Shown piece after piece: positions 26,193 to 60,148 of a stretch of DNA of 64,000 nucleotides (its first letter is position 1; every line of letters starts with the position of its first letter). The notes below the pieces were generated by a model. It was not told where the DNA came from. It did no database searches and worked only from the letters and a program-made list of their open reading frames with translations. The DNA is taken from positions 203,411 to 267,410 of the forward strand of contig JBMNLX010000009.1 of NCBI GenBank assembly GCA_050953085.1, read 5' to 3'. The position numbers and the translations under genes were made by a program. Source of the DNA: Bacilli bacterium (lineage in GTDB: Bacteria > Bacillota_I > Bacilli_A > ML615J-28 > CAG-698).

Positions 26193-28394
26193 ATGAGAAC
26201 AATAACGCTTATTATGATCGGTCTGGGCTTTTTTGGCTTGGCCGCGGGAAACAACGAAATACGGGACGAAATCATCTTTAGCGACGTCTTAAACGGAAAG
26301 GAAATCACCCGTCTGGAAAACTATTTGGTTTATTACAAATATAATTCCTCGGGAAGGACCCCGGCAAACGAGTGGGGTTACGAAATCTCGGTTAATGGCG
26401 AAAATTACGTCGTCGAGACGGGAACGAACGTTAACGTTTACCCCGGCGGCTACGCGATTTCCGGGCACGGAACGAAAAAGGAGCTTTTAACGCGGGTCCG
26501 CGTCGGCGATATCGTCGAGATAGATCACGGTTCCCTCGCGATCGCGGTCAAAAGAAACCCGGTGTTAAGCGCCGCCTTTCTTGTCGAGAAAAGCTACGCG
26601 GACGCGCAAGGATGGGCCGCGGCGGCCGCGGATAATTATATCCGGCGCGACGAGGCCGCGATTTCGAATCTTCTCAATGAATTAGCGGACGAGTATCAAA
26701 AAACGCGGGCGATTATCGAACAAGGGAATTATACCGCCGCTACGGTCGATACCCTGGAGAAGATTGCGGGTCGCTGCGAGGAAATCGCCTTTGAAATCCG
26801 ATACCGGACGGTAAATTCCGAGCCGCTTGAAATTAGGGCGCTCTGGCACCGCCCGAACGCGAGCGGAATAAGCGAGAGCAATTTGGCCGGCGTCAAAAGT
26901 TTTACCGCCAAGGTCAAGGAATTGGGCTTTAACGCGATCTACGTCGAGACTTTCTGGAACGGATACGCCAGTTATCGCTCCGATATCCTCGAGACGCACC
27001 CGCAGGTTGCCTATTATTATTACGGCGAGGAGTATGGGCACGATTATATCGCGGCGCTTATCGGCGAAGCGAAAAAGGCGGGAATCGACGTTTTTGCCTG
27101 GTGCCATACCTTTAACGCCGGGAATAACGCCTACCGGGCGAAAGCCGTTAAGGACGAGTGGCTCCTCGAGGATTACCAGGGAAACAAACTTCACCCAAAT
27201 GTCTACGGAGGAAGTTATTACCTCGACCCGTCGCACCCGGAAGCGCTTGATTTTATCGAGTCGGTCTTCGTCGAGATGACGGAGAAATACGATTTTGCCG
27301 GGATCCAATTTGATTATATCCGCTATTATGACAACGACTATCGAGCCTCGCCGGTCCGCGACAGCGGGTTCGGCGCGCACTCGGAGAATAAATTCAAGGA
27401 AGCGACCGGCCTTTCCGGGGATGTCCGGACGCTGGTTCTGAATACCGCTTACCGGGAAAAATGGAACGAGTGGAGACAGGCAAACATTACCGCCGCCGTG
27501 AAACGCTTCTCGGAAGCGATTCGCGCCGCAAGGAGCGATATCGCGATCTCGGCCGCCGTCGTCGCCAACGTCAATATCGCCCGCGACACATACATGCAGG
27601 ATTGGCCGACCTGGGTCAACCGCGGCTACATCGACCTGTTGTGCCCGATGATTTATACCGGCAGCGCCGCGGCCGTCGCCGAGGGCGCCCGGGCGATTAA
27701 AAACCGGGCGGGGAACTTAAGCCATCTGGCCGCCGGCATCGCCCCGATTTATTACGGTTACTCTAATCTCGTTGCCCTTGAGGAGACTCTTTCGGCCGGT
27801 AGGTACGGCGGCGCCTCCCATTTCGCGAGCCAAAACGTTATCGGCGACCCCGCTTTCGAGGCCGCGCTTCGGAATGGCGCGTACCGAACCGCGTCGATAT
27901 CGCCGCTTTCGCCTGCGGGAGTCGTCTTTGAAAAGGCGATGGAGGATCTGCTCGCGTATTGCGAGTATTACCGGGACGCCGCCGGGGATAATTACAGCGT
28001 CGTCAAGAATGAAATCGACGAAATCGCGGGAATGCGGCGCGAGAACCCCGCCGACTACGAGGAAATTATTAAACGGTTGAAACACCTGCGGCTTATAACC
28101 GCTTATCTCTCCGGCGACAGCCTCAGGGAGAACGTTAATCAAAAAATTACGCGTTTAATCGACGTTTTGGACGTGAAAATCTCGCGGGAATTGATCGCCA
28201 TGGGTTATTACGACCCCGAATCGGGGCCCCGTCCCGACGCCGCGTCTTTCGACTATCCTTCCCCCGGGTTGCCTCCCGTTGCCCCGGGTAACGGCGACAA
28301 GCCGAAAAAAGGTTGCTTCGCCGGCCAAGGCCTTATTGCGCTCGCCTTAATCGGATTATTATATTTTAGAAGAAGAAAGGAACACGCCTCATGA
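26193..28394 (+). CDS. membrane-anchored GHL10-family (glycoside hydrolase-like 10, YngK-like) protein with N-terminal signal/TM and C-terminal TM anchor
   Basis: GHL10 TIM-barrel region (EIRALWHRP...FNAIYVETFWNGYASY...FDYIRYY); N-term MRTITLIMIGLGFFGLAAG; C-term GQGLIALALIGLLYFRRRK. Confidence 0.75.
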   Translation: MRTITLIMIGLGFFGLAAGNNEIRDEIIFSDVLNGKEITRLENYLVYYKYNSSGRTPANEWGYEISVNGENYVVETGTNVNVYPGGYAISGHGTKKELLTRVRVGDIVEIDHGSLAIAVKRNPVLSAAFLVEKSYADAQGWAAAAADNYIRRDEAAISNLLNELADEYQKTRAIIEQGNYTAATVDTLEKIAGRCEEIAFEIRYRTVNSEPLEIRALWHRPNASGISESNLAGVKSFTAKVKELGFNAIYVETFWNGYASYRSDILETHPQVAYYYYGEEYGHDYIAALIGEAKKAGIDVFAWCHTFNAGNNAYRAKAVKDEWLLEDYQGNKLHPNVYGGSYYLDPSHPEALDFIESVFVEMTEKYDFAGIQFDYIRYYDNDYRASPVRDSGFGAHSENKFKEATGLSGDVRTLVLNTAYREKWNEWRQANITAAVKRFSEAIRAARSDIAISAAVVANVNIARDTYMQDWPTWVNRGYIDLLCPMIYTGSAAAVAEGARAIKNRAGNLSHLAAGIAPIYYGYSNLVALEETLSAGRYGGASHFASQNVIGDPAFEAALRNGAYRTASISPLSPAGVVFEKAMEDLLAYCEYYRDAAGDNYSVVKNEIDEIAGMRRENPADYEEIIKRLKHLRLITAYLSGDSLRENVNQKITRLIDVLDVKISRELIAMGYYDPESGPRPDAASFDYPSPGLPPVAPGNGDKPKKGCFAGQGLIALALIGLLYFRRRKEHAS

Positions 28395-29356
28395 GTCTAA
28401 CCGTACGCGTCGTCCCCGTTCTGGACAGCCGCGCCGTAGACGTCCGGAAGTTTTCCGATGTAAAAGTGTATCGGGGAGAGATCGAAAACGAGATATTCCC
28501 GCCGTCCCCGCCCCCCTGCTTTCCCGGCGCCTGGTACCGCAAGGCCTTTTCTTCGCGCGATTACTGGCTCGGGATCGAGGGGCTGATTGAGCTTGGCGAG
28601 TTTTTCCCCGACGAGAGCCGTTTTAATCTTGACGGCAAGGGTCGCTACATGGACAACCCCAGCGTTTATATGGGAGGCAACAGTTCCAGGGAAAGCGACG
28701 CGGGGCTCTCGCTTAATATTATGTATCCGACCGCCGACACTTCTTATGACCTTACCCCAGCTTCCCCGAAACTGGGTTACCGGCCTTTTTGGCGCTATAT
28801 ATATTACGAGGCCGAAGACATCGAAGGCAACGTCACGCGCCGGGAAGTGAATTCCTGGAACGTAACGCATCCAAAAAACTTGTCGTACTATTATTTTCCC
28901 GGCGATGTTTTGCGGATGAGCGTTTATTCGCCGCTTCCCGATTACCTGCAGTTGCGCATCGAAGTCGTAAAGCCGACGGAAATACCGAAGTACGCGAAAC
29001 TAAGGCGAGGTTACGGGCTTCCCGGTAACCGGCCCGCCGATTTCTTCAGCCCCTGTTTTTATTCCAAAGGTCACGGTTATGACAAAGCGGAGTTTAAACG
29101 GGTCAACGCCATCGACCAATACGGAAACGAAGGCTATAAAGCCCAAGAGACCAAGGCTCGGGTCACGCCCGCCGTTTGGCGCGAAGTCTACTTGTATCGA
29201 GAAATTGGGGGAGAAGTCATGAAGGTCCCCTTTCACGCCCGCCGTTACGGCTCGATGGTTTGCCCGGACGATAGGGCGATAACGGTATCCCCCCGCAACC
29301 CCGATTTGGGGGGAGAGATAATCGAGATTCACCCGGAAAAAGCAAGAAAGGAGTAA
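28391..29356 (+). CDS. uncharacterised 'X-domain' protein, paralog 1 (no signal peptide)
   Basis: Shares with ORFs 53876 and 61476 the motifs CFPGAWYRK, RDYWLG, VYMGGN, RPFWRYIYY, YYYFPGD, EFKRVNAIDQYGNEG, EVYLYRE, KVPF...CPD. Confidence 0.6.
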   Translation: MSLTVRVVPVLDSRAVDVRKFSDVKVYRGEIENEIFPPSPPPCFPGAWYRKAFSSRDYWLGIEGLIELGEFFPDESRFNLDGKGRYMDNPSVYMGGNSSRESDAGLSLNIMYPTADTSYDLTPASPKLGYRPFWRYIYYEAEDIEGNVTRREVNSWNVTHPKNLSYYYFPGDVLRMSVYSPLPDYLQLRIEVVKPTEIPKYAKLRRGYGLPGNRPADFFSPCFYSKGHGYDKAEFKRVNAIDQYGNEGYKAQETKARVTPAVWREVYLYREIGGEVMKVPFHARRYGSMVCPDDRAITVSPRNPDLGGEIIEIHPEKARKE

Positions 29357-46629: not shown

Positions 46630-47287
46630 ACCGCTGAGCTTGAAAAGAGAAAACCTAAAACAAATTTTAAGGGATTTATTCGTCCATCCTCTTTATCTCA
46701 TCACGCACCCGATCAAGGGGTTTGACCGGTTCAAACGGGAAAAGACGGGAAAAAGCTACGTCGCGTGGTTTTACTTCGTGATGATGATTATCGCGAACAT
46801 CATCGCGTTTAACGGCAACGACTTTTTGGTGAACGATAATAAACCCCGCGATTTTAATATATTTCTCATTATCGCTCTCGTCGCTTTCCCGGTGGGCGTC
46901 GTCACCGTCGCCAATTGGGCGTCGACGGCGCTTATGGATGGCAAGGGGACGATGAAAGAGATTTTCGCTGTAATCGGTTATTCCTTTTTTCCCTTTGTCT
47001 GGCTTAGCCTCGCGGCGACCGTGATCAGCAACTTCATCACTTACGACGAAATAGTATTTTTTCATTTCCTTAATACCATGGGCGCGGTCCTGCTCGCCTA
47101 TATGGTTTTTTTCGGGTTGATGGGAATCCACGAGTTTGGCCCGGCGAAGACAATTATGATGTTTGTCTTTACCGTCGTCGCCGTAGCCGCCGTCCTTTTC
47201 GTCATCTTGCTTTTTCTTTCTTTAATCCAGCACGTATACTCGTTTCTCGACTCATTTATTAGCGAGTTTAAATGGAGGTTTTGGTAA
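46622..47287 (+). CDS. Yip1-family membrane protein
   Basis: 5-TM Yip1-like topology; usual companion of DUF5696 in Firmicutes sugar loci. Confidence 0.65.
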   Translation: MNKPLSLKRENLKQILRDLFVHPLYLITHPIKGFDRFKREKTGKSYVAWFYFVMMIIANIIAFNGNDFLVNDNKPRDFNIFLIIALVAFPVGVVTVANWASTALMDGKGTMKEIFAVIGYSFFPFVWLSLAATVISNFITYDEIVFFHFLNTMGAVLLAYMVFFGLMGIHEFGPAKTIMMFVFTVVAVAAVLFVILLFLSLIQHVYSFLDSFISEFKWRFW

Positions 47288-49878
47288 TGAACGATAGTTA
47301 TCAAAAAACCTCAAGCCTGGTATCGCCGCTTGCCGGGAAAACTGGCGGCGGGAATAAAAGCGCGTTGCGAGCTTTCCGCTTTCCGTGGGCGAAATTATTG
47401 ATTGTGGTTTTGCTTGCCTTAATCGCCGGCGGGATTTATCTTACCGCGGTTTTGAATAAAGTAAAAGTCCCGCCCCGACCGGCATACGACAAGGAAGGTT
47501 TCGTTCCCGCGGCGGAGTTCCGCGCCCAAAACGGCGCGCTCACTGTTCTTGAAAACGAAAACTACCGTTTCGCATTTTCCAATACCGACACCACCTTTGT
47601 CCTCACGGACAAGGATAGCGGCTACGAATGGAGCTCCAACCCGCTCGGCGCGGCGAAGCGTTTCATGAACCCGCTCGTTCTTTATTACGCCGGCGCCCTA
47701 GGGGCGGCGCAGAAAATGGGCGTCGGGGAAGAAGCGGTCGCTCACGATGATTTCTATATTAGAAAAACCGCCGACGCGATTGAAGTTCTTTACGCGGCGG
47801 GCGGGAAGCGGACGGTCGACGCTTCCGATTTCCCAAAAGTCATGACCGAGGAGCGAATGCAGGAAAAAATCCTTTCCAAACTCGAGCCCGGCACGACTCC
47901 TTACCGGCGCGTCACCGAACAGTGCTATGTTCACGGAACCTTAAAAGGCGATAAGATTTGGCAGCTGAAGGATGGGATCCAACCCCATATTCTCGAGGCT
48001 TTATATGAAATATTCTATGACCGGTGCGGATACACGACCGAGGATTTGGCTTATGACCTGGAGCTTGCCGGCATTCAATACGAGGATAAATACCCCTATT
48101 TTGAAATCGCCGTCCGCTACGAGCTATCGGCCGAGGGACTCGCCGTCCGCCTGGTTAACGAATCGATTTACGAGAAGGAAAAATTCCCGCTTGTTTATGT
48201 CGATCTCCTTCCTTATTTCGGCTCCGCGACGACCGAGGACGTGGGTTATACCTTGATTCCCGACGGCAGCGGCGCCTTAATCGAGCATAACAACGGCCGC
48301 TCTTTCGCGATGCCTTACTTGCAAAGAATCTACGGCGCCGACGCCGCCGAGATCAAACCGGTCATGTTGCCGGCCGCCGAGAAAATATCCTTCCCCGTTT
48401 TCGGCATCCGCCGCGGCGATTCCGCGTTGCTCGCGTCCGTTGACGAAGGCGCGGCGATGGCCGCGCTGGCCGCGAACGGTAGCACGGCGGACAATCCCTA
48501 CAATCAAGCCTATTTCCGTTATTACCTGCGCGAATCGCAAAGTTTCGAGTTTGCTTCTTATCAAAAAGTCGTCACCGTGATCGAATGGACGGCTTGGTAC
48601 AATAAGGCTGATTTCGTCGTGAAATACATGACGGTGAACGAGGACGGAGGAAGCTACGCGGCGATGGCGCGAAAATATCGGGAATACCTGATCTCGCGCG
48701 CGGTTTTGCATGAAAGAACGGCGGGTTTGGGATTTAATCTCACGCTATTGGGCGGCTATATCGCTCGCGATAATTTTCTCGGCATACCCTACGAAACGGT
48801 GCGCGCTTTGACCGACACGAAAGAAGTCCTGGAGATCGCCCGCGAGCTTAGGGAAGCTGGAATCGAAAACCTCAACATTATCTACCGCGGCTGGGGAAAC
48901 GACGGAATCAAACCGACTTACGCCGGGAAAATCCGCTATAACCGCGCCGTCGGAAAACGCGGCGCTTTCCGCTCGCTGAAGAAAGAACTTGACGCGCTCG
49001 GGGTCGAGTTTTTCCCGGAGATTTGCCTGCAGACTGCTTACACCGGCCGCGACATCCGGGAAAGCAAAACCGCCGCCCGCAACGTCTTGGGCCGGGTGGT
49101 AAAAAACTACGACTACACGGAAGCGACGTTTTACGCCGACACCTCGACCCGTCCGTACTATATGCTAAAACCCGCGACTTATGAGCAAACGCTCCGGGCG
49201 GTTATGAAGGAATTTGAAAAAACCGGCATTGACAATCTCGCGGTTCGCGACGCCGGCGCGCTTGCGGGTAGTTATCATAAAAAAGACACCTATTTCCGCG
49301 CCGATAGCGAGCGATATTTCCGCGAGGCGATGACGGCCTCGTTTGCGGGGAAAAGAATGTTTTCCGATCCCAATCTTTACGCCTTGCCGTTTTGCGATAT
49401 TATTGTCGACCTGCCGGCTACCGCCACCCCCTATCAAATTATCGGTGTCGCCGTGCCCTTTGCCCAACTAGTCTTAAGCGGCGCCGTCTCTTACGGCGGC
49501 CGATCGTTTAATATCGACGACAAATATCCCTACCGGTGGCACGAAATGAAAGCGATCGAAACGGCCGCGGATATTAGTTTCACTTGGAGCTACGAATCAA
49601 CCGTCGCGCTCGCGGAAACGGAATACAAGTATTATTCGACCTATTACCGCAATTGGATTGACAAGGCCGTCGAAACGTATCGCGAACTCAAGGCTCTGGG
49701 TATTCACGACGCCCGTCTCGTTGATCACCGTTTGCTTACGGATGACGGCTCCGTCGTTAAGTCGGTCTATAGCGACGGCGCGGAAATCATATTTAATTAC
49801 GGCATGACGCCGTTTAATTACGGAATGGATCAGGTGGCGCCGAACAGCTATTACGTCGCAAAGGGGGCGCGGTCATGA
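47287..49878 (+). CDS. DUF5696-family protein with N-terminal TM anchor
   Basis: ~860 aa, N-terminal TM LLIVVLLALIAGGIYL; start taken at second ATG with RBS TGGAGG. Confidence 0.65.
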   Translation: MNDSYQKTSSLVSPLAGKTGGGNKSALRAFRFPWAKLLIVVLLALIAGGIYLTAVLNKVKVPPRPAYDKEGFVPAAEFRAQNGALTVLENENYRFAFSNTDTTFVLTDKDSGYEWSSNPLGAAKRFMNPLVLYYAGALGAAQKMGVGEEAVAHDDFYIRKTADAIEVLYAAGGKRTVDASDFPKVMTEERMQEKILSKLEPGTTPYRRVTEQCYVHGTLKGDKIWQLKDGIQPHILEALYEIFYDRCGYTTEDLAYDLELAGIQYEDKYPYFEIAVRYELSAEGLAVRLVNESIYEKEKFPLVYVDLLPYFGSATTEDVGYTLIPDGSGALIEHNNGRSFAMPYLQRIYGADAAEIKPVMLPAAEKISFPVFGIRRGDSALLASVDEGAAMAALAANGSTADNPYNQAYFRYYLRESQSFEFASYQKVVTVIEWTAWYNKADFVVKYMTVNEDGGSYAAMARKYREYLISRAVLHERTAGLGFNLTLLGGYIARDNFLGIPYETVRALTDTKEVLEIARELREAGIENLNIIYRGWGNDGIKPTYAGKIRYNRAVGKRGAFRSLKKELDALGVEFFPEICLQTAYTGRDIRESKTAARNVLGRVVKNYDYTEATFYADTSTRPYYMLKPATYEQTLRAVMKEFEKTGIDNLAVRDAGALAGSYHKKDTYFRADSERYFREAMTASFAGKRMFSDPNLYALPFCDIIVDLPATATPYQIIGVAVPFAQLVLSGAVSYGGRSFNIDDKYPYRWHEMKAIETAADISFTWSYESTVALAETEYKYYSTYYRNWIDKAVETYRELKALGIHDARLVDHRLLTDDGSVVKSVYSDGAEIIFNYGMTPFNYGMDQVAPNSYYVAKGARS

Positions 49879-51302
49879 AAAATAACGCCCGCATCGAAAA
49901 GTTGAATAAAAAAATCGCGCTGCTAAGCGCCCGAATCGAGAAGGCGGCGGCCGAGCGCGCCGAATTGCTTTCTCTCGCGACCGTACCTCTCGGGAAAGTC
50001 TTCCGGCTGGAACGGCTCCTTTTTCGCCTGGAAAACGGCCGCGAAGCGCGCCGGGAGAAACTTTCCGCCCTGGAAACGGGCGCGCCCGCGCGGCGGAAAA
50101 CGAGAAGGGCGCGCATTGCCTACCTTAGCCCGGAAGCTGGGAAGATCTATTCCGAGCAAATCAAAGCGAAAAAAGAAAAATATGAGAAAAGTTTGGATAA
50201 GGCGACCGAGAAATACATAGAAAAAGCTAAGGCCAAACAGACAGGCCAAAAAGGCGTCAGTTACCGCCAAGTCGCGGTCGCCGGCCGAAAACGGGAACGG
50301 CTTAAGAAAACGGTTCAACATTACGAATTACAATTATTGCGTCTTAGCGAAGGCAAATACCAGTTACTCGGTTTCTTCGGAAAAATTAAGCGATCTTTCT
50401 CCCAAATGCCTTACGGCAAGCAAAAATTAGTATTCGGTTTGCTTTTCCTTACTCCTTGGATAATCGGTTTTTGCATTTTTTTCGCCGTTCCCGTTTTTAC
50501 TACTATTTCTTGGAGTTTTCAAAAACTCGAGACGGTTTCCGGCGGCGGCTTTAAGTCGACGTTCGTCGGGTTCGGGAATTACCGCGATTTGTTTACGACC
50601 GCGACCTTGGCCGGATCGACAATCTCCGAAGTTATCGTCGCCTCGGTGATCGATATCTTGTTGGATCTTCCGACGATTATTATCTTTAGTTTGTTTATCG
50701 CCGCGCTTTTGAACACGCGCTTTAAGGGTCACCAACTGGTGAAGGCGATCTTTTTCATCCCGGTTGTCTACAACATCACCGTTATCAACAACACCCTCAC
50801 GGGGATGTTCGGCCAGCGATTTGACTCCGCGATTACGGAAGGATTCAATCTTTCGCAGCGTTTCGCCTTCTTTCTTCAGCGGATCGGCGTCGGCGGGAAT
50901 CTGATCGACTTTCTGATTTCCGCGGTCGACCGAATCTTCACGATTGTCAATATGTCGGGAATCCAGATTTTGATGTTTATCGCCGCTCTGCAGTCAATCC
51001 CGAAACATCTCTACGAAGCCGCCAAGGTTGAAGGCGCGACCTCTTACGAGATGTTTTGGAAGATTACTTTCCCGATGGTTTCGCCGATTATCATGACGGC
51101 GATCGTCTTTACCATCGTCAACAGTTTCGCGACCTCCGAGATCATGAATTTCATGACCGTGAACTCGCAGGGAACGACGATGGCGACCAATAACCCCGGA
51201 CTTTACTCGGCCATCGCGATTATCTACTTTCTGGCAAACGCCCTGATAATCGCCGCCGCTTTCGTTATCATGAGAAAGGTTGTGTTCTATCATGACAAGT
51301 AA
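49875..51302 (+). CDS. carbohydrate ABC permease (MalF-like) with ~180-aa basic coiled-coil N-terminal cytoplasmic extension
   Basis: Permease core with EAA loop EAAKVEGATSYEMFWKITFP; N-terminal KLNKKIALLSARIEKAAAERAELL...KAKKEKYEKSLDKATEKYIEKAKAK. Confidence 0.8.
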   Translation: MKNNARIEKLNKKIALLSARIEKAAAERAELLSLATVPLGKVFRLERLLFRLENGREARREKLSALETGAPARRKTRRARIAYLSPEAGKIYSEQIKAKKEKYEKSLDKATEKYIEKAKAKQTGQKGVSYRQVAVAGRKRERLKKTVQHYELQLLRLSEGKYQLLGFFGKIKRSFSQMPYGKQKLVFGLLFLTPWIIGFCIFFAVPVFTTISWSFQKLETVSGGGFKSTFVGFGNYRDLFTTATLAGSTISEVIVASVIDILLDLPTIIIFSLFIAALLNTRFKGHQLVKAIFFIPVVYNITVINNTLTGMFGQRFDSAITEGFNLSQRFAFFLQRIGVGGNLIDFLISAVDRIFTIVNMSGIQILMFIAALQSIPKHLYEAAKVEGATSYEMFWKITFPMVSPIIMTAIVFTIVNSFATSEIMNFMTVNSQGTTMATNNPGLYSAIAIIYFLANALIIAAAFVIMRKVVFYHDK

Positions 51303-52290
51303 GCAAAGTTTTAAAACGAAGGCGGCGTCCCGTTTAGCATCGCTCCGGGAACGGCTCGCGTCGCCGCGGGAGCGGATGCTTCTTCGCCGGCGGGCGTTAA
51401 ACGCGATCGCGAACATCTTTAAATACGCGCTCCTAATTGGGCTTTGCTTTATTATCCTTTACCCGATTATCCTGCAACTCGCGCTCGCCTTCCGGGCTCC
51501 CGAAGACGTCAATAACCCGGCGATTCTTTGGATCCCGGAACGGTTCTCGCTGAAGAATTTCGAGGTTGCGATGATCGCCCTCCGTTACTGGGAGGCGCTG
51601 CGTTATACTCTCATCCTGTCAACAATAGTCACCGTCCTGCAGCTGGCCTCGACCTCGCTCGCGGGCTACGCCTTCGCGAGGCTCAGGTTCCGCGGCAGCT
51701 CGATTTTGTTTGGGTTAGCGCTTTTCACGATTATCGTTCCCCAAACCGTTATCTCGCTTCCGCTATTACGGGCGGTAACGAAAATGGGTCTTGTTGACAA
51801 ACCGATAACGCTCTTCCTTATGTCCGGGCTCGGCATGGGGATTAGGTCGGGTATCTTTATCTATCTGTTCCGTCAGTTTTACCGCGGGCTTCCGGTCGAG
51901 CTCGAGGAAGCGGCCGTCGTCGACGGCGCCAACGCTTTCCAGGTTTTTTACCGGGTAATGCTCCCGAACGCGAAGCCGGCGATCATCACGGTCGGTCTTT
52001 TGAGTTTCGTTTGGCAGTGGAATGATTTTTACTTCACGAAACTGTTTTCCGGCGGCCAGTATTTCACGCTCACGACGCAGCAGGTCGCGGTTCTTTACGG
52101 CTTGCAGCAGGCGTTGGCCGACGCCGGGGTTTGGAGTCTTCTCGGACAGGATATCACCAACAACCCGTATTTTTCTTCAATGATCCTGAATACGTGCGGC
52201 ATTTTGGTAATGCTTCCGCTATTGGTCATTTATTTCTTCGTCCAGAAATTATTCGTAGAGGGAATTGAAAGATCCGGCATCGTCGGATAA
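51280..52290 (+). CDS. carbohydrate ABC permease (MalG-like) with ~50-aa N-terminal extension
   Basis: EAA loop EAAVVDGANAFQVFYRVMLP. Confidence 0.8.
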   Translation: MCSIMTSKQSFKTKAASRLASLRERLASPRERMLLRRRALNAIANIFKYALLIGLCFIILYPIILQLALAFRAPEDVNNPAILWIPERFSLKNFEVAMIALRYWEALRYTLILSTIVTVLQLASTSLAGYAFARLRFRGSSILFGLALFTIIVPQTVISLPLLRAVTKMGLVDKPITLFLMSGLGMGIRSGIFIYLFRQFYRGLPVELEEAAVVDGANAFQVFYRVMLPNAKPAIITVGLLSFVWQWNDFYFTKLFSGGQYFTLTTQQVAVLYGLQQALADAGVWSLLGQDITNNPYFSSMILNTCGILVMLPLLVIYFFVQKLFVEGIERSGIVG

Positions 52291-52324
52291 AATATATACC
52301 GGAAAGGAGCAAAAGATAATAAAC

Positions 52325-53866
52325 ATGAAAATCATAAAAAAATTATTTCTCGTTTTGATTATTTTCCTCGCGGTTTTCGCCGTCGGCTGTAAAAAGGATG
52401 ACGACAACGGAAACAACAACGGAAATAATAACGGAAACGGAAACGAGAACGGCAACGGGACGATCGACGACCCCGTTCCCGACATGAAAGGGCAAACCTT
52501 CATAATCATGGTTAACCGCGCCTCGACAACCGACCCGCGGAGCGAGGCTTACACCGGCAGTTGGAAAGATCAGAAGATCGCCAAGATTCAAGAAGTCGAA
52601 GATAAGTACAATATCAAAGTGGAATACCGCACATATCCCGCGGAAGCGGTTTGGGGCGGCGGCCGCGAACGGTTTATAATCGAAAACTCGGTTAACGACA
52701 CGCCGAAGGCGCATATTTACGAGATGCCGTCTTACTCAATCGCGATTCTCGCGGAAGCAAAGGCGATCTTGCCTTTGGACTCGCTGATCGAGAAATACGG
52801 GAATCCGGGTTATTGGCCGGAAAAGGCGGCTTTTGGCATGGTAATGGGCAAGCAATACGCCTATGACGACGGTTACCCGCTCGTCGGCCAGGGGATCTTT
52901 TATAATATCGACTTGCTCGAGGAGTATTTGGGCGAGGGCAAGGGCACTCTCCCGAGCGAGCTTTGGCTCGCGGGCGAGTGGGATTGGGACGCTTTCCGCG
53001 AGATCTGTTATCAACTCTTGCCGGGAATCTCCGGCCGCGCCGTCGAGGGAGCCGCCGTTATCGGCGGCCGGGCTTACAACTGGGCATACCAAATGCTTGG
53101 GGCGAACGGCGTTCACGTCGTCACCACCGACCTGAAGTCGGAACTGTCGACCGCTCCCGCCATCGATACCCTGACTTTCCTGCACGAACTGATCAGCGTT
53201 CCGGGAATGTGGGAATGGCAGAGCGCGGCCTTGGAAAACGCCTCCTGCCCGCAGTTTAAAGCCGGAAATATCGCCTTTCATAACGGCGAGCCTTATTGGC
53301 TATATGACTCGACGAAATGGCTTGATTACCAGTTTAATATGGGCTTCGTTCCCTACCCGACCGGGCCGAACACCAACGAAGACTTAAGCAATTACTACAT
53401 TAACGAGATTTACGGGAAGACGAGTTACGTTGTTTCGAGTTCCTACTCGCTTGAAAAAGTTCCGCCGGGATACGAGAACATCATGTTCCACGAGGAGAAT
53501 ATTTTCCGCATCTGGTCCGACCTGCAATATTTTCCGGAGATCGACGAGGAAACGGGGTATAGTTCCACCGACGAGATCGTCGAGGAATGGGTGTTCACCA
53601 CGCTGGAACTTTATTACAGCCCGAAAGGAAACAACGCCTCGATCGAGGCTCATAAGTCGATTATGTTCAGAGGCTATCCCGATTATTTCTACAGCCTTTA
53701 CTGGGCCCGCAGCCAAGACGAGACCAAGTCGTTCATGCTTGAAATCCAGCAGGCGATTCTGAGCGGGTCAATCCGCGACGAGATGATCGATCTCGTGAGC
53801 CGGATTCATCAAGAATTTCTCGACACATACACAAATCTAGGCTTAACCGAAGAACACTATAAATAA
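52325..53866 (+). CDS. extracellular solute-binding lipoprotein (CUT1 family) with Asn/Gly low-complexity linker
   Basis: Lipobox AVGC; RBS GGAAAGGAG; SBP fold. Confidence 0.8.
   Translation: MKIIKKLFLVLIIFLAVFAVGCKKDDDNGNNNGNNNGNGNENGNGTIDDPVPDMKGQTFIIMVNRASTTDPRSEAYTGSWKDQKIAKIQEVEDKYNIKVEYRTYPAEAVWGGGRERFIIENSVNDTPKAHIYEMPSYSIAILAEAKAILPLDSLIEKYGNPGYWPEKAAFGMVMGKQYAYDDGYPLVGQGIFYNIDLLEEYLGEGKGTLPSELWLAGEWDWDAFREICYQLLPGISGRAVEGAAVIGGRAYNWAYQMLGANGVHVVTTDLKSELSTAPAIDTLTFLHELISVPGMWEWQSAALENASCPQFKAGNIAFHNGEPYWLYDSTKWLDYQFNMGFVPYPTGPNTNEDLSNYYINEIYGKTSYVVSSSYSLEKVPPGYENIMFHEENIFRIWSDLQYFPEIDEETGYSSTDEIVEEWVFTTLELYYSPKGNNASIEAHKSIMFRGYPDYFYSLYWARSQDETKSFMLEIQQAILSGSIRDEMIDLVSRIHQEFLDTYTNLGLTEEHYK
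52404..52460 (+). repeat. imperfect AACGGA hexanucleotide microsatellite encoding NGNNNGNNNGNGNENGNG linker
   Basis: aacggaaacaacaacggaaataataacggaaacggaaacgagaacggcaacggg. Confidence 0.8.
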
Positions 53867-53875
53867 GGACGGAAA

Positions 53876-55438
53876 ATGAAAAAATTACTAATACCGGCGA
53901 TCGCCGCGCTATGTTTCTTTTGCCTGCAGGGTTGCCGGGAATCGACGGAAAAACAATTACAAAAAATACTGAACTCAATTGAAATTCCGGCCGAAGTGAC
54001 GGGCAATATCGATCTGCGCGAAAGCTACACGGTCGGGGGCGCGACGGCGCGCGCGGAATGGCATTCCACCGACTCCGGCGTCATAACCAATACCGGCGAG
54101 GTAAAAGTCGAGGTCTATGACCGCCACGCTATCCTTCAGGTTAAACTCTTCATCGGCGAGCATTTCGTCACGAAGAACTTCCCGGTAACGGTCAAGGGGA
54201 GCGCCGATCTCGCGCTCTTGCACGCTTTCGTTCAGGATCAGTTGCGTTTTGAACGCGAGGTGACGGGAAATCTCCCGCTTTTGACCGAATACGTCCAGGA
54301 CGGGGTGAAGATCGACGCCGTTTGGTTTTCGGATAAGCCGGAGATAATCGCCCCCGACGGGACCGTCCGCAGGGGCGAAGAGGAAGTCGACGTGACACTG
54401 ACCGTGACGCTTAGCCTTAACGAAGCCCGATTGACGCAAAGTTTTAATTTAACGGTCCTTCGCGACCCGGCGCTCTCGCCGATCAACTGGTGGCACACGG
54501 TCGAGGTCTGGACAGGCGTTATTCCCGGCGAGGCGAAAAAGCCGGCGACGCCGGCTTGTTTCCCGGGGGCCGTTTACCGCAAAGTCGTTTCGAGCCGCGA
54601 TTATTGGCTCGGCATCGAGGCCGTCGTGACCCTGCCGGAGTTTACCCCCGACCCGCGACGCTTCGACGAAAGCAAACTTAGTTACTATTTGGATAACGCC
54701 TCCATTTACATGGGCGGTAACGCCCAATACGAAAGCGATATCGGTCTGACATGGTCTATCGGCTACGCCGAGCGCGGCGCGACCAACTACAGCCGCTCGG
54801 GTATCGCGTTCCGCCCTTTTTGGCGTTATATTACGCGCAAGGAACCCGATTGCACAAATTGTTATCGCAACAGTAACGTTAAGGATTTGGAATATTATTA
54901 TTTCCCCGGAGATAAGATCAGAATGAGCGTGATCAGCCCGGAACGCGGTTATCTGCAGATGCGGATTGAACTACTGGAAGAGACGACGATCGAGAAATAC
55001 GCCGCCCGGCGCGCCGCCCTCGAGCTTCCCGCGGGCTACAGCCGCGTATTTATGACGCCGCCTTTTCCTTCCGAGGGAATGGGAGCGACGAAGGCGGAGT
55101 TCAAACGGGTTAACGCCATCGATCAAGTCGCAAACGAAGGCAAACCGACGATCAATACCGACGCGAAAGTTGAGGGAGCGGTTTGGCACGAGGTCTACCT
55201 TTACCGCGAGATTGACGACAAGATTTATAAGGTCCCGTTAACCGCCGACCGGAGCGCGGGGATGGCCTGTCCCGCTGGTAAAAACCAAAACGGCGACTTC
55301 ACGGGCGCCGTGATTACCGGCGTCGCGGGCGTTAATCCCGCCCTCGGGGGGGAGACGGTAACGATTAAGCCCGATAACGGCACCGGGCGGTTATATAGCA
55401 ATTACGCGTTCATCAAACGGAAGGAAGAGGATTTATGA
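53876..55438 (+). CDS. lipoprotein with two N-terminal Ig-like domains and C-terminal 'X-domain' (paralog 2)
   Basis: Lipobox LQGC; C-terminal half carries the X motifs CFPGAVYRK, RDYWLG, RPFWRYI, YYYFPGD, EFKRVNAIDQ, EVYLYRE, KVP. Confidence 0.6.
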   Translation: MKKLLIPAIAALCFFCLQGCRESTEKQLQKILNSIEIPAEVTGNIDLRESYTVGGATARAEWHSTDSGVITNTGEVKVEVYDRHAILQVKLFIGEHFVTKNFPVTVKGSADLALLHAFVQDQLRFEREVTGNLPLLTEYVQDGVKIDAVWFSDKPEIIAPDGTVRRGEEEVDVTLTVTLSLNEARLTQSFNLTVLRDPALSPINWWHTVEVWTGVIPGEAKKPATPACFPGAVYRKVVSSRDYWLGIEAVVTLPEFTPDPRRFDESKLSYYLDNASIYMGGNAQYESDIGLTWSIGYAERGATNYSRSGIAFRPFWRYITRKEPDCTNCYRNSNVKDLEYYYFPGDKIRMSVISPERGYLQMRIELLEETTIEKYAARRAALELPAGYSRVFMTPPFPSEGMGATKAEFKRVNAIDQVANEGKPTINTDAKVEGAVWHEVYLYREIDDKIYKVPLTADRSAGMACPAGKNQNGDFTGAVITGVAGVNPALGGETVTIKPDNGTGRLYSNYAFIKRKEEDL

Positions 55439-56139
55439 TCGATAAGATCTATCATCAACTAATCGTTTCCTGCCAGGCCCGCCCCGGCGAGCCCCTGCGC
55501 GATTCCGGAATTATCGCGAAAATGGCGGAGGCGGCCGTCATGGGCGGCGCCGCCGCGATCAGGGCCGCCGGCGTCGAGGACATTCTCGCAATCAAGCGGG
55601 CGGTATCCGTTCCGGTGATCGGGCTTATCAAGCGGGAGTATCCCGACAGCGATATCTACATCACCCCGACAAAGCGGGAGGTCGAGGAACTCCTCTCTAC
55701 GGATTGCGAGATGATCGCGATCGACGCCACCTCGAGACGCCGTCCCGGCGGGGAGGAGGTTAAGGAACTTTTGGCGCTCGCGCATCATCATCGCCGCCTC
55801 GTCCTGGCGGACGTCGCGACTTTTGAGGAAGCGAAAGCGGCGCAGGATCTCGGATTTGACGCCGTGGCGACGACGATGGCAGGCTATACCGCCTACACGC
55901 GCCCGCTTCCGGGCCCGGATTTCCGGCTGCTTAGGCGGATGGTAAGGCGGCTGTTTATCCCGGTAATCGCGGAGGGAAGAATTTATGATACCCGCGATTT
56001 GAGGAAGGTACTGAAGATCGGTCCCCACGCCGTCGCGATCGGGACGGCGATTACCCGGCCCCACGTTATTACCGAAAGGTTTCTCCGTTGCTTTAAGGAG
56101 GGGAAATACGGGAAGAGCCGACAAAAATTCGAAAAATGA
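55435..56139 (+). CDS. nanE: putative N-acetylmannosamine-6-phosphate 2-epimerase
   Basis: LIVSCQARPGEPL...IGLIKREYPDS...MIAIDAT NanE TIM-barrel signature. Confidence 0.8.
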   Translation: MIDKIYHQLIVSCQARPGEPLRDSGIIAKMAEAAVMGGAAAIRAAGVEDILAIKRAVSVPVIGLIKREYPDSDIYITPTKREVEELLSTDCEMIAIDATSRRRPGGEEVKELLALAHHHRRLVLADVATFEEAKAAQDLGFDAVATTMAGYTAYTRPLPGPDFRLLRRMVRRLFIPVIAEGRIYDTRDLRKVLKIGPHAVAIGTAITRPHVITERFLRCFKEGKYGKSRQKFEK

Positions 56140-56150
56140 TATTTCCCAAA

Positions 56151-56178
56151 TGTAAAACATTGAAAAAAGTGGTATAAT
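56151..56178 (+). promoter_or_regulatory. promoter for GntR regulator (weak -35 TGTAAA, extended -10 TGGTATAAT)
   Basis: TGGTATAAT 56170-56178, 31 nt before ATG 56208. Confidence 0.45.
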
Positions 56179-56207
56179 TATAAAAACTTATTTTAGCGAG
56201 GTAGTAT

Positions 56208-56924
56208 ATGGGTAAGATTCCAATGTATCAACAAATCGAGAGGGACCTGCGGGTGGCGATTTTGGAGGGAAAACTGAAACAGGGAGACATGGTCCCGAGC
56301 GAAACAGAGCTCGCCGCACGGTACAAGGTAACGCGGATGACGGTCAGGCAGGCGATTAATAATCTTTTGGTCGACGGTTATATTTACCGACATAAAGGCC
56401 GCGGCACTTTTGTTACTTTCAATAAAAAGGAAATGCAGGACGAGACGCCGTTTTTTTCCTTCGCCAACGAGATGAAGGGGGTCGACGGCCCCGTCAAAAC
56501 GACCGTATTGAAGTTTGAGGTCGGCAAGGCCGATGAGATTATCGCTCTCAGGCTGCAGCTGCGCGTCGACGACCCGATTTATTACGTCGAGCGGTTGCGC
56601 CATTCCGGAAACAAACCGCTCGCTTTCGAGCGCGTCTACCTTCCCTACAATATGTATCACGAGTTGAACGAGGATATATTCAAAGGGTCTTTTCACGATT
56701 ATGTTCAGAATAAACTTAACTGGAAAATCAGGAACTGCGTCCGGGCGATCGAGGCCCGCGGCGTGACGAAGAAGGTCGCCGAACTTTTACATCAAAGAGA
56801 AGGCGAACCGTCCCTGTATATGAGCAGCGTCACATATTTGGACAACGGCCGCGCTTTTGTCTACACGCGCTGCTATTTCCATGGGGAACATTTCCGCTTT
56901 AAACATAATTTTACGAGAAAATGA
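56208..56924 (+). CDS. GntR-family transcriptional regulator, HutC/UTRA subfamily (NagR/YvoA-like)
   Basis: wHTH ETELAARYKVTRMTVRQAINNL plus UTRA effector domain. Confidence 0.85.
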   Translation: MGKIPMYQQIERDLRVAILEGKLKQGDMVPSETELAARYKVTRMTVRQAINNLLVDGYIYRHKGRGTFVTFNKKEMQDETPFFSFANEMKGVDGPVKTTVLKFEVGKADEIIALRLQLRVDDPIYYVERLRHSGNKPLAFERVYLPYNMYHELNEDIFKGSFHDYVQNKLNWKIRNCVRAIEARGVTKKVAELLHQREGEPSLYMSSVTYLDNGRAFVYTRCYFHGEHFRFKHNFTRK

Positions 56925-58009
56925 TCATGAACAAAGAAAAAAACGATTCCAAGACAAATAATGAAGATGTTATCTGGTTTGACCCGCTCGAGACGAATGC
57001 GATTCGCGTTCGCGGGTTCGCTTGGTTTGACAATGACCGCCGTTACCGGCGCTTGCCGGCGAGCTCGGACAGTCTCGTCGCCCGCGTCTCGCCCAATGTC
57101 GCGCGCCTTTCCGGCGACGCGGCGGGCGGGCAGATTCATTTCCGGACAGATTCCGACACCGTGGAAATCGCGGCGGAACTGGCGGCGCCCAGCTTGATGT
57201 CGCATATGACGATCGCTTCCCAAGGCGGGTTTGACTGTTACGTCGGGAGCGACTTTAGCGATTTAAAATTCTATGCGACGACGACTTTCCCCGTCGACGC
57301 GAAAAGTTACCGTTACCGGTTTTTTGCGGGCGTCCCCGGAGACAAACTCGTCGTTCTTAACTTCCCCCTTTACAACAGGGTGGAAAGCGTTCGCGTCGGC
57401 GTTAAACCCGGGGCCGCTTTGCGGGATCCGGGGGATTTCCCGCAGCCGGGGCGGATCGTCGTTTACGGGACTTCAATCACCCAGGGCGCATGCGCCAGCC
57501 GGCCCGGTTTGTGTTACACGAATATTTTAAGCAGGCGGCTCGGTATCGAATTCATCAATCTTGGTTTTTCCGGGAGCGCCTTCGGCGAGCCTGAAATCGC
57601 GGAACTCGTTTCGGAGGTTAGCGGGGCGCGGATGTTCGTACTTGACTACGAGGCCAACGCCGGGACCAACGGCCGGCTTTACCGGACGCTCGAGGATTTT
57701 ATTAAAATCATCCGCGGCCGTTACCCGAACGCGCCGATCGTCGTTGTTTCCCGAATTAAGTATTTGTTTGACGAGCTTAATCCCGGAACCCTGGGAAAAA
57801 TGCGCCGGGAACTGCGGGAATTTCAGAAGAACGTCGTATCCGCGCTAAGGGAAAAAGGAGACGACGCCGTGTATTTTGTTGACGGGTCCGGCTTTTTTCC
57901 CGACGATTATCACGAGTTTACCGTCGATTCCGTTCATCCCAACGATATCGGTTTTTACCGAATCGCGGAGGGATTGGAAAAAGAAATCAGGAAGATTTTG
58001 AAAATTTGA
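56921..58009 (+). CDS. SGNH/GDSL hydrolase-family esterase with N-terminal beta-sandwich domain (putative sugar O-acetylesterase), cytoplasmic
   Basis: Blocks GTSITQG (Ser), NLGFSGS (Gly), GTNG (Asn), DSVHPND (Asp/His). Confidence 0.7.
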   Translation: MIMNKEKNDSKTNNEDVIWFDPLETNAIRVRGFAWFDNDRRYRRLPASSDSLVARVSPNVARLSGDAAGGQIHFRTDSDTVEIAAELAAPSLMSHMTIASQGGFDCYVGSDFSDLKFYATTTFPVDAKSYRYRFFAGVPGDKLVVLNFPLYNRVESVRVGVKPGAALRDPGDFPQPGRIVVYGTSITQGACASRPGLCYTNILSRRLGIEFINLGFSGSAFGEPEIAELVSEVSGARMFVLDYEANAGTNGRLYRTLEDFIKIIRGRYPNAPIVVVSRIKYLFDELNPGTLGKMRRELREFQKNVVSALREKGDDAVYFVDGSGFFPDDYHEFTVDSVHPNDIGFYRIAEGLEKEIRKILKI

Positions 58010-58018
58010 GGATATGTT

Positions 58019-58708
58019 ATGCATAGATTACTTACAACGCTTAAAAGAAAGAAGTTCAGCCTGATCGCGAGCCTGCCCGAAAATTCCTACGAAATGGCGA
58101 AAATCGCCTGGGAAGCGGGCGCCGACGCGATAAAAGTTCACATTAATGTTTTTCACCGCGCGAGCCAAAACACTTTCGGACCGTTGACAGAAATCAGAAA
58201 CACGTTTGAAAGAATTATCGCGGATAGCCCCGTTCCCGTCGGGATCGTCGCCGGCGAGGACCCGATCCTGGTCGAAGAATTGCTCGATGATATCGTGGCG
58301 ATGGGATTTGATTTCATTTCTCTCTACGGTCATTTCATGCCGGCGTCTCTGGTCGAGCGCCGCGATATCACGACTTTTTTCGCCGTTAACTCCGATTACT
58401 CGCTCGAGGAGATCCGTCACTTGTCTCAGTCTTTTTTCGGGGACATCTTGGAACTCTCGATCATCGCTCCCGAGCATTACGGGAAAAGACTTTCCGCCCG
58501 CGACTTGGCTAAGTATAATTACATCGCGACTCACGCCGTCGCGCCGACCGTCGTGCCGACGCAAAAATTGGTTTACCCGAGCGACGTGAAGTCGCTGTAC
58601 CGGACCGGCGTTAGCGCCGTGATGGTCGGGGCAATCTGCTACGGTCGCGACCCGGAGAAAATGCGCCAAGTTATTAAGAGTTTCCGAAGCGAGATTGATC
58701 GGCTGTGA
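58019..58708 (+). CDS. uncharacterised TIM-barrel protein, distantly NanE/BtpA-like
   Basis: Weak collinearity with NanE (LIASLPENS...AGADAIKVH...PVPVGIVAGE); no firm family assignment. Confidence 0.4.
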   Translation: MHRLLTTLKRKKFSLIASLPENSYEMAKIAWEAGADAIKVHINVFHRASQNTFGPLTEIRNTFERIIADSPVPVGIVAGEDPILVEELLDDIVAMGFDFISLYGHFMPASLVERRDITTFFAVNSDYSLEEIRHLSQSFFGDILELSIIAPEHYGKRLSARDLAKYNYIATHAVAPTVVPTQKLVYPSDVKSLYRTGVSAVMVGAICYGRDPEKMRQVIKSFRSEIDRL

Positions 58709-60147
58709 AAAAGACCTTGATCATCCCGCTTGACAGCCGCCCCTGCAATACCGCGTGGCTCAAGCGGCTGGCGGAGGAAGCGGGCGTTCCCGCGCTTATT
58801 TATCCCCGATCCCGGTGCGGCACGCTTCACCGCGGCGCCGATTTTGCCGGGATGATGTCGATGATTGAAGCGAATATCGCCGATTGCGAGTATTTGCTTA
58901 TCTCTGCCGACGGGCTTGCGAGCGGCGGCCTTATCCAAGCCCGCCTTGGCCTCGCCGACCCAGATCGCTTAAGCGCGGAACTTAAGGTTCTCGGCGAATA
59001 CAAAAAACGTTACCCGGGGCTTAAAATATATGTTTTCGACACGTTGATGCGGACGTCGATTACCGCCTACGACGCGGAAAGCGCCCGCCACTGGTCGCTC
59101 GTGAACGAGTATTCAAGACTTTTGGGCGAGGAAGGCGCCGCGGAAAGCGCCCGGCTGCGATATCTAGAGAAGGCGATTCCCGAACGCGTTTTAAACCGAT
59201 ATTTGCGGGCGCGCGAGATCAAGCTCCGTCTCAACCTTTATTTTTTGGAACAGACCGCCGCGGGCGTCGTCGATTATCTTATCATCCTCCAGGAGGATAC
59301 CGCGCCCCGGGGCATACAAAAACGGGAACAGGAGATTATCGCGGACTTTATAAAAGAACATGGCCTCGGGAATAAAGTTAAAACGCACAACGGGACCGAC
59401 GAAGGCGGCTTATTGCTTCTCGCGAAGATAGTCAACGAAAAGCGGAGGCATTCGCCACGGGTATATCTGCTCCTGCCCGAACAGGGCGTTTTGGAGAAGA
59501 CGATGCTTTTCGAAGACCGCCCTTTCGGGGAAAATCTCCGGGCGATGTTTGAGACCGCGGGCTTCGTTCCCGCGAACGACCCGGATTCCGCCGATTTTAT
59601 TCTCGCGGTTTACGCGGAAAAGGAAAACAAGGATTTGGATTTAAGCGATTTCCGGGAAGTGTTGCCGGAAAAAGGTCCGCGATATCGCGCGTTTGTCAGC
59701 GAATTAAATAATTATTTAGCGGCCGGCAAGCCCGCGGGCCTTGTTGACCTGCTTTTTCCCAACGGCGGCAGCCCCGAATTGCTCGGGGAAATCGATTATC
59801 GGGCGCTTAAGGTCTATTCGGCTTGGAATACCGCTTCCAACGCCTTGGGCTCGGCCCTTTGCGAGATTGCGGTGTTGACGTCCGTTCCGGACGCGGACCA
59901 CGAGGCGTTTAAGAACGAGCGAATCATGGACGACTGCGTTTACCAGTATATCGTCCGCCGGCAGGTTAACCGGGACTTGCTCGCCTCCGGTCATAATATT
60001 TATGATCTCGGCGACCTGGGCCCGAAAGTCGCGGCCCGGATCGCCGGAGAAATGGAAAAATATCGATTTCTCGTCGATAACCGCAGGTTTAGGATATCGC
60101 TTCCTTGGAACCGGACGTTTGAAATCGACATCGAGGTAGAGGATTAA
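58705..60147 (+). CDS. DUF4127-family protein (copy 2)
   Basis: IIPLDSRPCN, VYSAWNTASNALGSA; paralog of ORF 31041. Confidence 0.7.
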   Translation: MKKTLIIPLDSRPCNTAWLKRLAEEAGVPALIYPRSRCGTLHRGADFAGMMSMIEANIADCEYLLISADGLASGGLIQARLGLADPDRLSAELKVLGEYKKRYPGLKIYVFDTLMRTSITAYDAESARHWSLVNEYSRLLGEEGAAESARLRYLEKAIPERVLNRYLRAREIKLRLNLYFLEQTAAGVVDYLIILQEDTAPRGIQKREQEIIADFIKEHGLGNKVKTHNGTDEGGLLLLAKIVNEKRRHSPRVYLLLPEQGVLEKTMLFEDRPFGENLRAMFETAGFVPANDPDSADFILAVYAEKENKDLDLSDFREVLPEKGPRYRAFVSELNNYLAAGKPAGLVDLLFPNGGSPELLGEIDYRALKVYSAWNTASNALGSALCEIAVLTSVPDADHEAFKNERIMDDCVYQYIVRRQVNRDLLASGHNIYDLGDLGPKVAARIAGEMEKYRFLVDNRRFRISLPWNRTFEIDIEVED

Positions 60148-60148
60148 T

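Follow-up and report, generated by a model that had tools for sequence, protein, structure and literature searches.

Three paralogous genes and their family

We analysed a 64,000-nt stretch of DNA from a Bacilli bacterium (CAG-698; assembly GCA_050953085.1, contig JBMNLX010000009.1, positions 203,411-267,410 of the forward strand), referred to here as the window, which carries three genes, X1, X2 and X3, encoding copies of one shared domain, the X domain. The three open reading frames (ORFs) are present on the plus strand where an earlier annotation of this DNA, the original prediction, had placed them: X1 at 28391..29356, X2 at 53876..55438 and X3 at 61476..62324. X1 is a 321-aa protein consisting of the domain alone, and X3, with 282 aa, is a minimal copy; neither has a signal sequence, indicating a cytoplasmic location. 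X2 is a probable lipoprotein of 520 aa, in which a signal at aa 1-20, ending in the lipobox-like LQGC, is followed by an immunoglobulin (Ig)-like aBig_2 domain ('atrophied bacterial Ig', PF20578, E 3e-17; best stretch aa 127-196) and then by the shared domain at aa ~209-504 (nt ~54500-55387). The predicted layout of two cytoplasmic copies and one Ig-fused lipoprotein is thus borne out.

In pairwise BLASTP, X1 and X2 share 47% identity over 307 aa (E 9e-83), X1 and X3 42% over 284 aa (E 2e-68) and X2 and X3 45% over 252 aa (E 2e-71), confirming the paralogy and putting identity at 42-47%, slightly above the 35-45% first suggested. Some 90 alignment columns are identical in all three proteins. 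All of the invariant blocks named in the original prediction were found in X1, X2 and X3, with one correction: the spacer of the KVP[FL]-CP block comprises nine residues, not seven.

The X domain defines a real family outside the coverage of Pfam and NCBIfam, in agreement with its description as uncharacterised. Neither Pfam-A nor NCBIfam gave a match to the shared region of X1-X3, even at E <= 1, and searches of PDB chain sequences returned nothing meaningful with single sequences or with 3- and 69-sequence profiles; the sole PDB sequence match, 2b9l (E 0.07), was dismissed as noise. The homologues, 575 for X1 and 311 for X3, are named 'hypothetical protein' at source and have no Pfam domain over the shared region. 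A full HMMER scan of 1.84 billion representatives at 50% identity found 236 clusters, and a scan of GTDB with one genome per species found 335 loci, so that the lack of homologues outside this genome, named in the original prediction as evidence that would count against a family, did not occur; in global terms the family is small. Members are found mostly in Mycoplasmatota and related Bacilli (Acholeplasma, Haploplasma, Paracholeplasma, Anaeroplasma, Izemoplasmatales, Haloplasma, Liberiplasma), and also in gut and rumen Clostridia and in a few Bacteroidota, where they carry type IX secretion system (T9SS) sorting tails. Five contigs labelled Bacteroidales (L004, L007, L010, L020, L060) and one labelled Prevotella (L026) are probably mis-binned or mislabelled contigs of metagenome-assembled genomes; the five encode X1 orthologues of 61-68% identity in full Mycoplasmatota-type synteny.

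Domain architecture and conservation were followed in 306 near-full-length members, reaching down to 26% identity to X1. The domain stands alone and without a signal in 228 of these, whereas ~57 combine a signal or lipobox with Ig-like domains (PF16403, PF20578), so that by sequence features ~75% of members are predicted to be cytoplasmic and the rest to be lipoproteins or secreted proteins with Ig-like domains. Rarer members are fused to NAGPA with a T9SS tail (P0256) or to a dockerin (P0215), fusions which point to extracellular degradative roles.

Fold, nearest relatives and conserved residues

The top ranks in Foldseek were taken by 8xai ('protease CPAVM1', a YncM homologue), YncM and scytalidoglutamic peptidase, with E values from 1e-7 to 1e-6. 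By fold score, Bacillus subtilis YncM (4hfs) was closest at 16.7 / 17.3, followed by neprosin, a glutamic-class prolyl endopeptidase (14.7 / 15.1), the DUF3472 proteins 8pmu (12.8 / 13.6) and 4qhx (12.6 / 13.0), a circularly permuted GH16 lichenase from F. succinogenes (10.7 / 11.9) and aspergilloglutamic peptidase (10.6 / 11.2), with PL7/PL18 lyases, other GH16 enzymes and lectins at 7-9. The Foldseek result and the ranking of fold scores assign the modelled X domain to the concanavalin-like beta-sandwich superfold, within which it is predicted to lie nearer the YncM/glutamic-peptidase branch than those of the glycosidases and lyases; fold matches were obtained for peptidase G1/eqolisin (PF01828), YncM and the neprosin catalytic domain. 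The prediction of a previously undescribed family holds for database families, but X is not without relatives: structure search and profiles place it beside YrpD/YncM and the glutamic peptidases. The original prediction had foreseen that a confident structure match would refine the annotation, and the match found here does so without refuting it. Mean-field direct coupling analysis of the 306 sequences, run for strand pairings, gave a signal dominated by gap and misalignment artefacts.

The relationship to YncM extends to sequence. YncM matches PF15493 ('YrpD, domain of unknown function') with E 3e-88; its sequence and that of scytalidoglutamic peptidase (1s2b) were verified against the PDB chains. 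The PF15493 hidden Markov model (HMM) has no match in X1-X3 or in 66 relatives at E <= 1. Profile comparison with hhalign aligned the 69-sequence X alignment with YncM and CPAVM1 over 87 columns (P 7e-4), extending to 120 collinear columns (P 6e-4) after two divergent metagenomic YrpD-like sequences were added. In X1 numbering, used throughout, Y93, G95, E101, D103 and G105 pair with Y43, G45, E53, D55 and G57 of YncM, R131 and R135 with K68 and K72, and F235 and K236 with W143 and K144, and a PG-x-x-[VI]-x-M hairpin is aligned between the two proteins. All residues invariant in a four-sequence alignment of YncM-like proteins (Y43, G45, E53, D55, G57, W143, K144) have an aligned counterpart in X1. 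What X has in common with YrpD/YncM (4hfs, 8xai) is thus a collinear series of Y-x-G, E-x-D-x-G, basic residues on the next strand, the hairpin and an [FW]-K strand. In contrast to YrpD/YncM, X has ~80-120 more residues, begins with a CF-GAWY-K strand and contains three insertions, has the additional invariant residues K51, R77, D88, D242, Q243 and E247, and is mostly cytoplasmic and encoded in amino-sugar operons, whereas YncM and YrpD are secreted Bacillus proteins.

YrpD and YncM are paralogs of the AbrB regulon in B. subtilis, annotated 'peptidase_G1_like', whose function is not established (bioRxiv 10.64898/2026.06.23.734000). CPAVM1 is a secreted protease cleaving influenza proteins according to Li et al. 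2024 (Antiviral Res 228:105919), as cited in PMC13291215. The relatives of X thus supply a fold and a hint and not an established function. The DUF3472 proteins (8pmu, 'HC7'; 4qhx, BACCAC_02064, 'putative two-domain sugar hydrolase') have no sequence match to X, and DUF3472 is itself without known function, so that it adds no functional information.

The glutamic peptidases are a more distant match. With the eqolisins (G1, PF01828; 1s2b, 2ifr, 1y43) X has in common a 'GD-x-I/V-x-M-S/T-V' hairpin, and two of the 66 relatives gave sub-threshold Peptidase_A4/G1 Pfam matches (best E 0.0093). The PF01828 HMM has no match in X1-X3 at E <= 1, and hhalign against a 38-sequence G1 alignment recovered a single hairpin (P 0.011, probability 3.8%); forced G1 alignments, global or with low mact, were unreliable, and weak per-sequence HMM alignments gave conflicting registers. 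None of X1, X2 and X3 contains the G1 motifs Q[TAS]G and [IVL][IVL]E[DN], where the catalytic residues Gln53 and Glu136 reside; by an alignment chained through YncM, D103 and V238 would occupy the strand positions of the G1 dyad. In neprosin (G3; 7zvc, 7zu8) the catalytic glutamate pair is E188/E297, and the Pfam Neprosin model has no match in X1-X3 or the 66 relatives. X differs from the glutamic peptidases in localisation, pH setting and genomic context, without a significant profile match to them. Judged from these comparisons, the most fitting description of X is that of a new family, lacking the eqolisin dyad, within the YrpD/'peptidase G1-like' superfamily; the family itself is new, and the fold class and the detectable relative PF15493 were already known.

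GH16 glycoside hydrolases (such as the F. succinogenes lichenase 3axd/1zm1) and PL7/PL18 alginate lyases resemble X in the concanavalin-like jelly-roll superfold, in acidic residues two apart on one strand, in a glycan-degradation context and in having both extracellular and intracellular forms. Membership in GH16 was rejected, the catalytic ExDx(x)E motif (E-[ILV]-D-[IVAF]-[VILMF]?-E on one strand) being absent, as was membership in PL7, whose QIH, YFKAG and R[STN]ELR motifs are absent; both families lack a Pfam match in X and have lower fold scores.

Across the 306 members, Y49, K51, R77, D88, Y93, E101, D103, R131, R135, K236, R237, N239, D242, Q243, E247 and T254 are each at least 90% conserved, a level that reaches at least 93% for 16 polar positions, with E101, D103 and G105 reaching at least 97% and K236, V238, D242 and Q243 at least 98%. 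The ExDxG motif occurs in 294 members and [FWY]-K-x-[VLI]-N-x-I in 261. In X1 the first corresponds to E101-S-D103-A-G105-L (28691..28708, plus strand), on a beta-strand and carrying the candidate catalytic acids, and a second strand of conserved residues is F235-K-R-V-N-A-I-D-Q243 (29093..29119, plus strand). By strand order, the conserved residues would lie on strands matching the eqolisin active-site sheet. The active site would then be the concave sheet, with E101 and D103 on one strand and K236 on another, both features common to YncM, and the family-specific D242, Q243, E247, Y49 and Y93, together with a basic ring of K51, R77, R131, R135 and R237, would hold the substrate. Because six or seven invariant basic residues surround two to five acidic ones, this arrangement suggests that the substrate is anionic.

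Gene neighbourhood and synteny

The three copies lie in two adjacent blocks of one large plus-strand gene array. Block 1 reads GHL10, X1, GH84, DUF4127, NAGPA, a 1675-aa surface protein, DUF624, a 958-aa solute-binding protein (SBP) and two permeases. Its first gene encodes a membrane-anchored putative glycosidase (GHL10, PF02638; 26115..28394), the conserved upstream neighbour of X1-type genes, and the conserved downstream block comprises the GH84 NAGidase (29359-31056), a first DUF4127 copy (31041-32543; E 2e-149) and the NAGPA phosphodiester glycosidase (32540-34450). Block 2 starts with NHL, Yip1, DUF5696, two permeases and an SBP, followed by X2, NanE, GntR, a GxDLY/SGNH esterase, a 229-aa protein, DUF4127, FAD_oxidored and X3. 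The genes for DUF5696, two ATP-binding cassette (ABC) permeases and the SBP (47272..53866) precede X2-type lipoprotein genes as a conserved block, in Acholeplasma and Haploplasma as well, and X2 lies directly 3' of the ABC SBP gene. The cassette that follows (55435..61483) holds NanE (55435-56139), whose start overlaps the X2 stop, with the GntR regulator next, then the esterase (56921-58009), the 229-aa barrel-like protein (58019-58708), a second DUF4127 copy (58705-60147; E 5e-110) and the flavoprotein FAD_oxidored (PF12831; 60149-61483), directly before X3. Overlaps of 4-16 nt join GHL10/X1, GH84/DUF4127, DUF4127/NAGPA, X2/NanE and FAD oxidoreductase/X3, the GHL10 stop overlapping the X1 start in ATGA and the FAD oxidoreductase end overlapping the X3 start by 8 nt; these start/stop overlaps suggest co-translation in tightly coupled operons.

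All of these features are on the plus strand, and the predicted glycan-enzyme neighbours, namely GHL10, GH84, the two DUF4127 copies and NAGPA, were confirmed by Pfam. The description of X as twice beside DUF4127 holds loosely, as in the window the two are one gene apart, with GH84 or the FAD oxidoreductase between. PDB sequence searches returned no informative relatives for DUF4127, the FAD oxidoreductase or the 229-aa protein, and a literature search found nothing functional on DUF4127, PF13552, DUF5696, PF12831, DUF3472, N-acetylmannosaminidase or bacterial phosphodiester glycosidase. The 229-aa protein, without a Pfam match, resembles PDB chains of IGPS-scaffold (beta/alpha)8 barrels only weakly (E 0.04) and is probably another, uncharacterised sugar-phosphate enzyme. 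The 1675-aa ORF (34576-39603, plus strand) has no significant Pfam domain and is kept downstream of NAGPA in 10 related loci; its Anaeroplasma equivalent has Bact_surface_Ig-like domains, and we presume that the ORF encodes a giant surface protein belonging to this system. In the 958-aa ABC SBP (40373-43249, plus strand) the SBP domain covers only ~580-865, leaving an N-terminal extension of ~570 aa unannotated; the Anaeroplasma orthologue shows a faint CBM_35 match. Elsewhere in the window, an ORF at 4746-5549 (plus strand) matches only the C-terminal part of gamma-glutamyltranspeptidase (profile 323-512 of 512) and may be a split or truncated copy.

The linkage recurs in relatives. Among 74 related loci surveyed with tblastn, the neighbours of X were DUF4127 in 41, ABC permeases in 31, NAGPA in 21, NanE and GHL10 in 17 each, GH84 in 14 and the FAD oxidoreductase in 12, in accord with the proposed co-occurrence with DUF4127, GH84 and NAGPA. 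DUF4127 is the most frequent partner, and direct adjacency is common in the relatives. X1-type genes follow GHL10 and precede GH84, DUF4127, NAGPA or NanE, X2-type genes stand between an SBP and DUF4127, and X3-type genes follow the FAD oxidoreductase in six of six cases; the cassette of GxDLY esterase, 229-aa protein, DUF4127, FAD oxidoreductase and X3 is kept in at least 12 loci. Cultured species agree with this pattern. The order in Acholeplasma laidlawii and Haploplasma axanthum is DUF5696, permeases, SBP, an Ig + X lipoprotein, DUF4127, alpha/beta hydrolase, FAD_oxidored, X and NanE, with NagB, GH20, PIG-L and esterases nearby. Haloplasma contractile has DUF4127, a GDSL esterase, RpiR, FAD_oxidored, GNAT, DUF4127, NagA, NagB and an X lipoprotein, and the Anaeroplasma order is X, NAGPA and a large SBP. 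One Anaeroplasma-like locus (L076, 2520-6048) carries Amidase_2, a beta-lactamase-family gene and Peptidase_S66 at a distance of 4-7 kb upstream from its X-NAGPA pair; the presence of these murein-recycling genes of LD-carboxypeptidase type in a wall-less bacterium hints at feeding on the walls of other bacteria.

Proposed role and alternatives

The reading we lean towards, tentatively, is that X is a catalytic domain of amino-sugar glycan catabolism, forming a distinct concanavalin-like family nearest to YrpD/YncM and the glutamic peptidases. A surface copy of the X2 type would cut an extracellular N-acetylhexosamine (HexNAc) glycopolymer, probably anionic through phosphate or carboxylate, into importable pieces, and the cytoplasmic X1- and X3-type copies would break linkages of this kind in the fragments once imported, working alongside GH84, NAGPA, DUF4127 and the PF12831 flavoprotein to deliver HexNAc-6-phosphate to NanE, NagA and NagB. 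Genomic context favours a glycosidic or sugar-phosphate bond as the one cleaved. The original prediction of a catalytic carbohydrate-active domain is consistent with the intracellular and surface forms and with the linkage to glycan genes; as the nearest relatives are a domain of unknown function and peptidases, it is the genomic context, and not the relatives, that points to a carbohydrate-active domain, and catalysis itself is a prediction.

Several points weigh against this assignment. The presumed cleft placement of the conserved residues comes from strand order, and the invariant polar residues could also serve tight binding. In addition, the tight linkage of X with glycan and amino-sugar genes is less clear for the secreted Ig-X form of Clostridia, which occurs outside obvious glycan operons.

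The fold neighbours make an amide bond a serious alternative. X would in this case be a peptidase or amidase of the glutamic-peptidase lineage acting on a glycoconjugate (stem peptide, muropeptide lactyl-amide, glycopeptide or N-acyl group), the surface form trimming peptide from wall or glycoprotein debris and the cytoplasmic form finishing the task before amino-sugar catabolism. The top structural neighbours (YncM/CPAVM1, neprosin and eqolisins), the reported secreted-protease activity of CPAVM1, the sub-threshold Peptidase_A4/G1 matches and the Anaeroplasma locus whose X gene has Amidase_2, Peptidase_S66 and a gene of beta-lactamase type some kb upstream all speak for such an activity, whereas the absence of the Gln53 and Glu136 motifs from every paralog and a G1 profile comparison reduced to one structural hairpin speak against it. 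Moreover, X is mostly cytoplasmic, at neutral pH, whereas glutamic peptidases are acid-active and secreted, peptide transporters and other peptidases are not conserved in the surveyed loci, and the protease claim for CPAVM1 reaches us through a citing paper. On balance we consider amide cleavage unlikely.

A non-catalytic X, capturing glycans at the surface in a lectin-like manner for the ABC transporter and serving in the cytoplasm as a substrate-binding or regulatory subunit of the co-translated FAD oxidoreductase, DUF4127 or NAGPA enzymes, would account for the X2-type position directly after the SBP, the overlap of X3-type genes with the FAD oxidoreductase gene in all six cases and the fusion of some members to a catalytic NAGPA domain, yet it appears doubtful, given that three in four members stand alone in the cytoplasm, which is unusual for lectins and CBMs, that invariant E, D, K, R, Y and Q residues on neighbouring strands persist through three ancient paralog groups down to 26% identity, as is more typical of an active site, and that the best-scoring structural relatives of known function are enzymes. 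We favour an enzyme over a lectin because surface and cytoplasmic paralogs keep identical invariant polar residues, because X genes are translationally coupled to those of enzymes, because fusions join some members to a dockerin or to a catalytic phosphodiester glycosidase, and because the loci end in NanE, NagA and NagB.

If X is a catalytic domain of amino-sugar glycan catabolism, a speculative but coherent setting is the scavenging of Gram-positive cell-wall glycopolymers by wall-less bacteria, the polymers being, for example, teichoic-acid linkage units or HexNAc-1-phosphate polymers. These contain N-acetylmannosamine (ManNAc), phosphodiesters of N-acetylglucosamine (GlcNAc)-1-phosphate and O-acyl groups, and their scavenging would explain why NAGPA, esterases and NanE are present and why the examined loci lack a sialate lyase. 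In its boldest form, which we regard as improbable, X would found a new carbohydrate-active family on the glutamic-peptidase/YrpD scaffold, cleaving a linkage not known to have an enzyme family, for example a beta-N-acetylmannosaminide or a HexNAc-1-phosphate linkage of teichoic-acid or capsule type, in an undescribed route of wall-glycopolymer scavenging by wall-less Mycoplasmatota, with DUF4127, the PF12831 flavoprotein, the 229-aa barrel-like protein, NAGPA and NanE as its partners.

X is a well-defined lead for enzyme discovery and not yet a discovery, and an unprecedented mechanism is so far not indicated. X could prove to be a new family of CAZy type, built on a peptidase-like scaffold, and its proposed role, if true, would give a first function to the YrpD/YncM superfamily. 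X travels with DUF4127, DUF5696, PF12831, GHL10 and bacterial NAGPA near the final steps of GlcNAc and ManNAc catabolism, and its function would probably reveal which glycopolymer these wall-less bacteria and gut Clostridia harvest.

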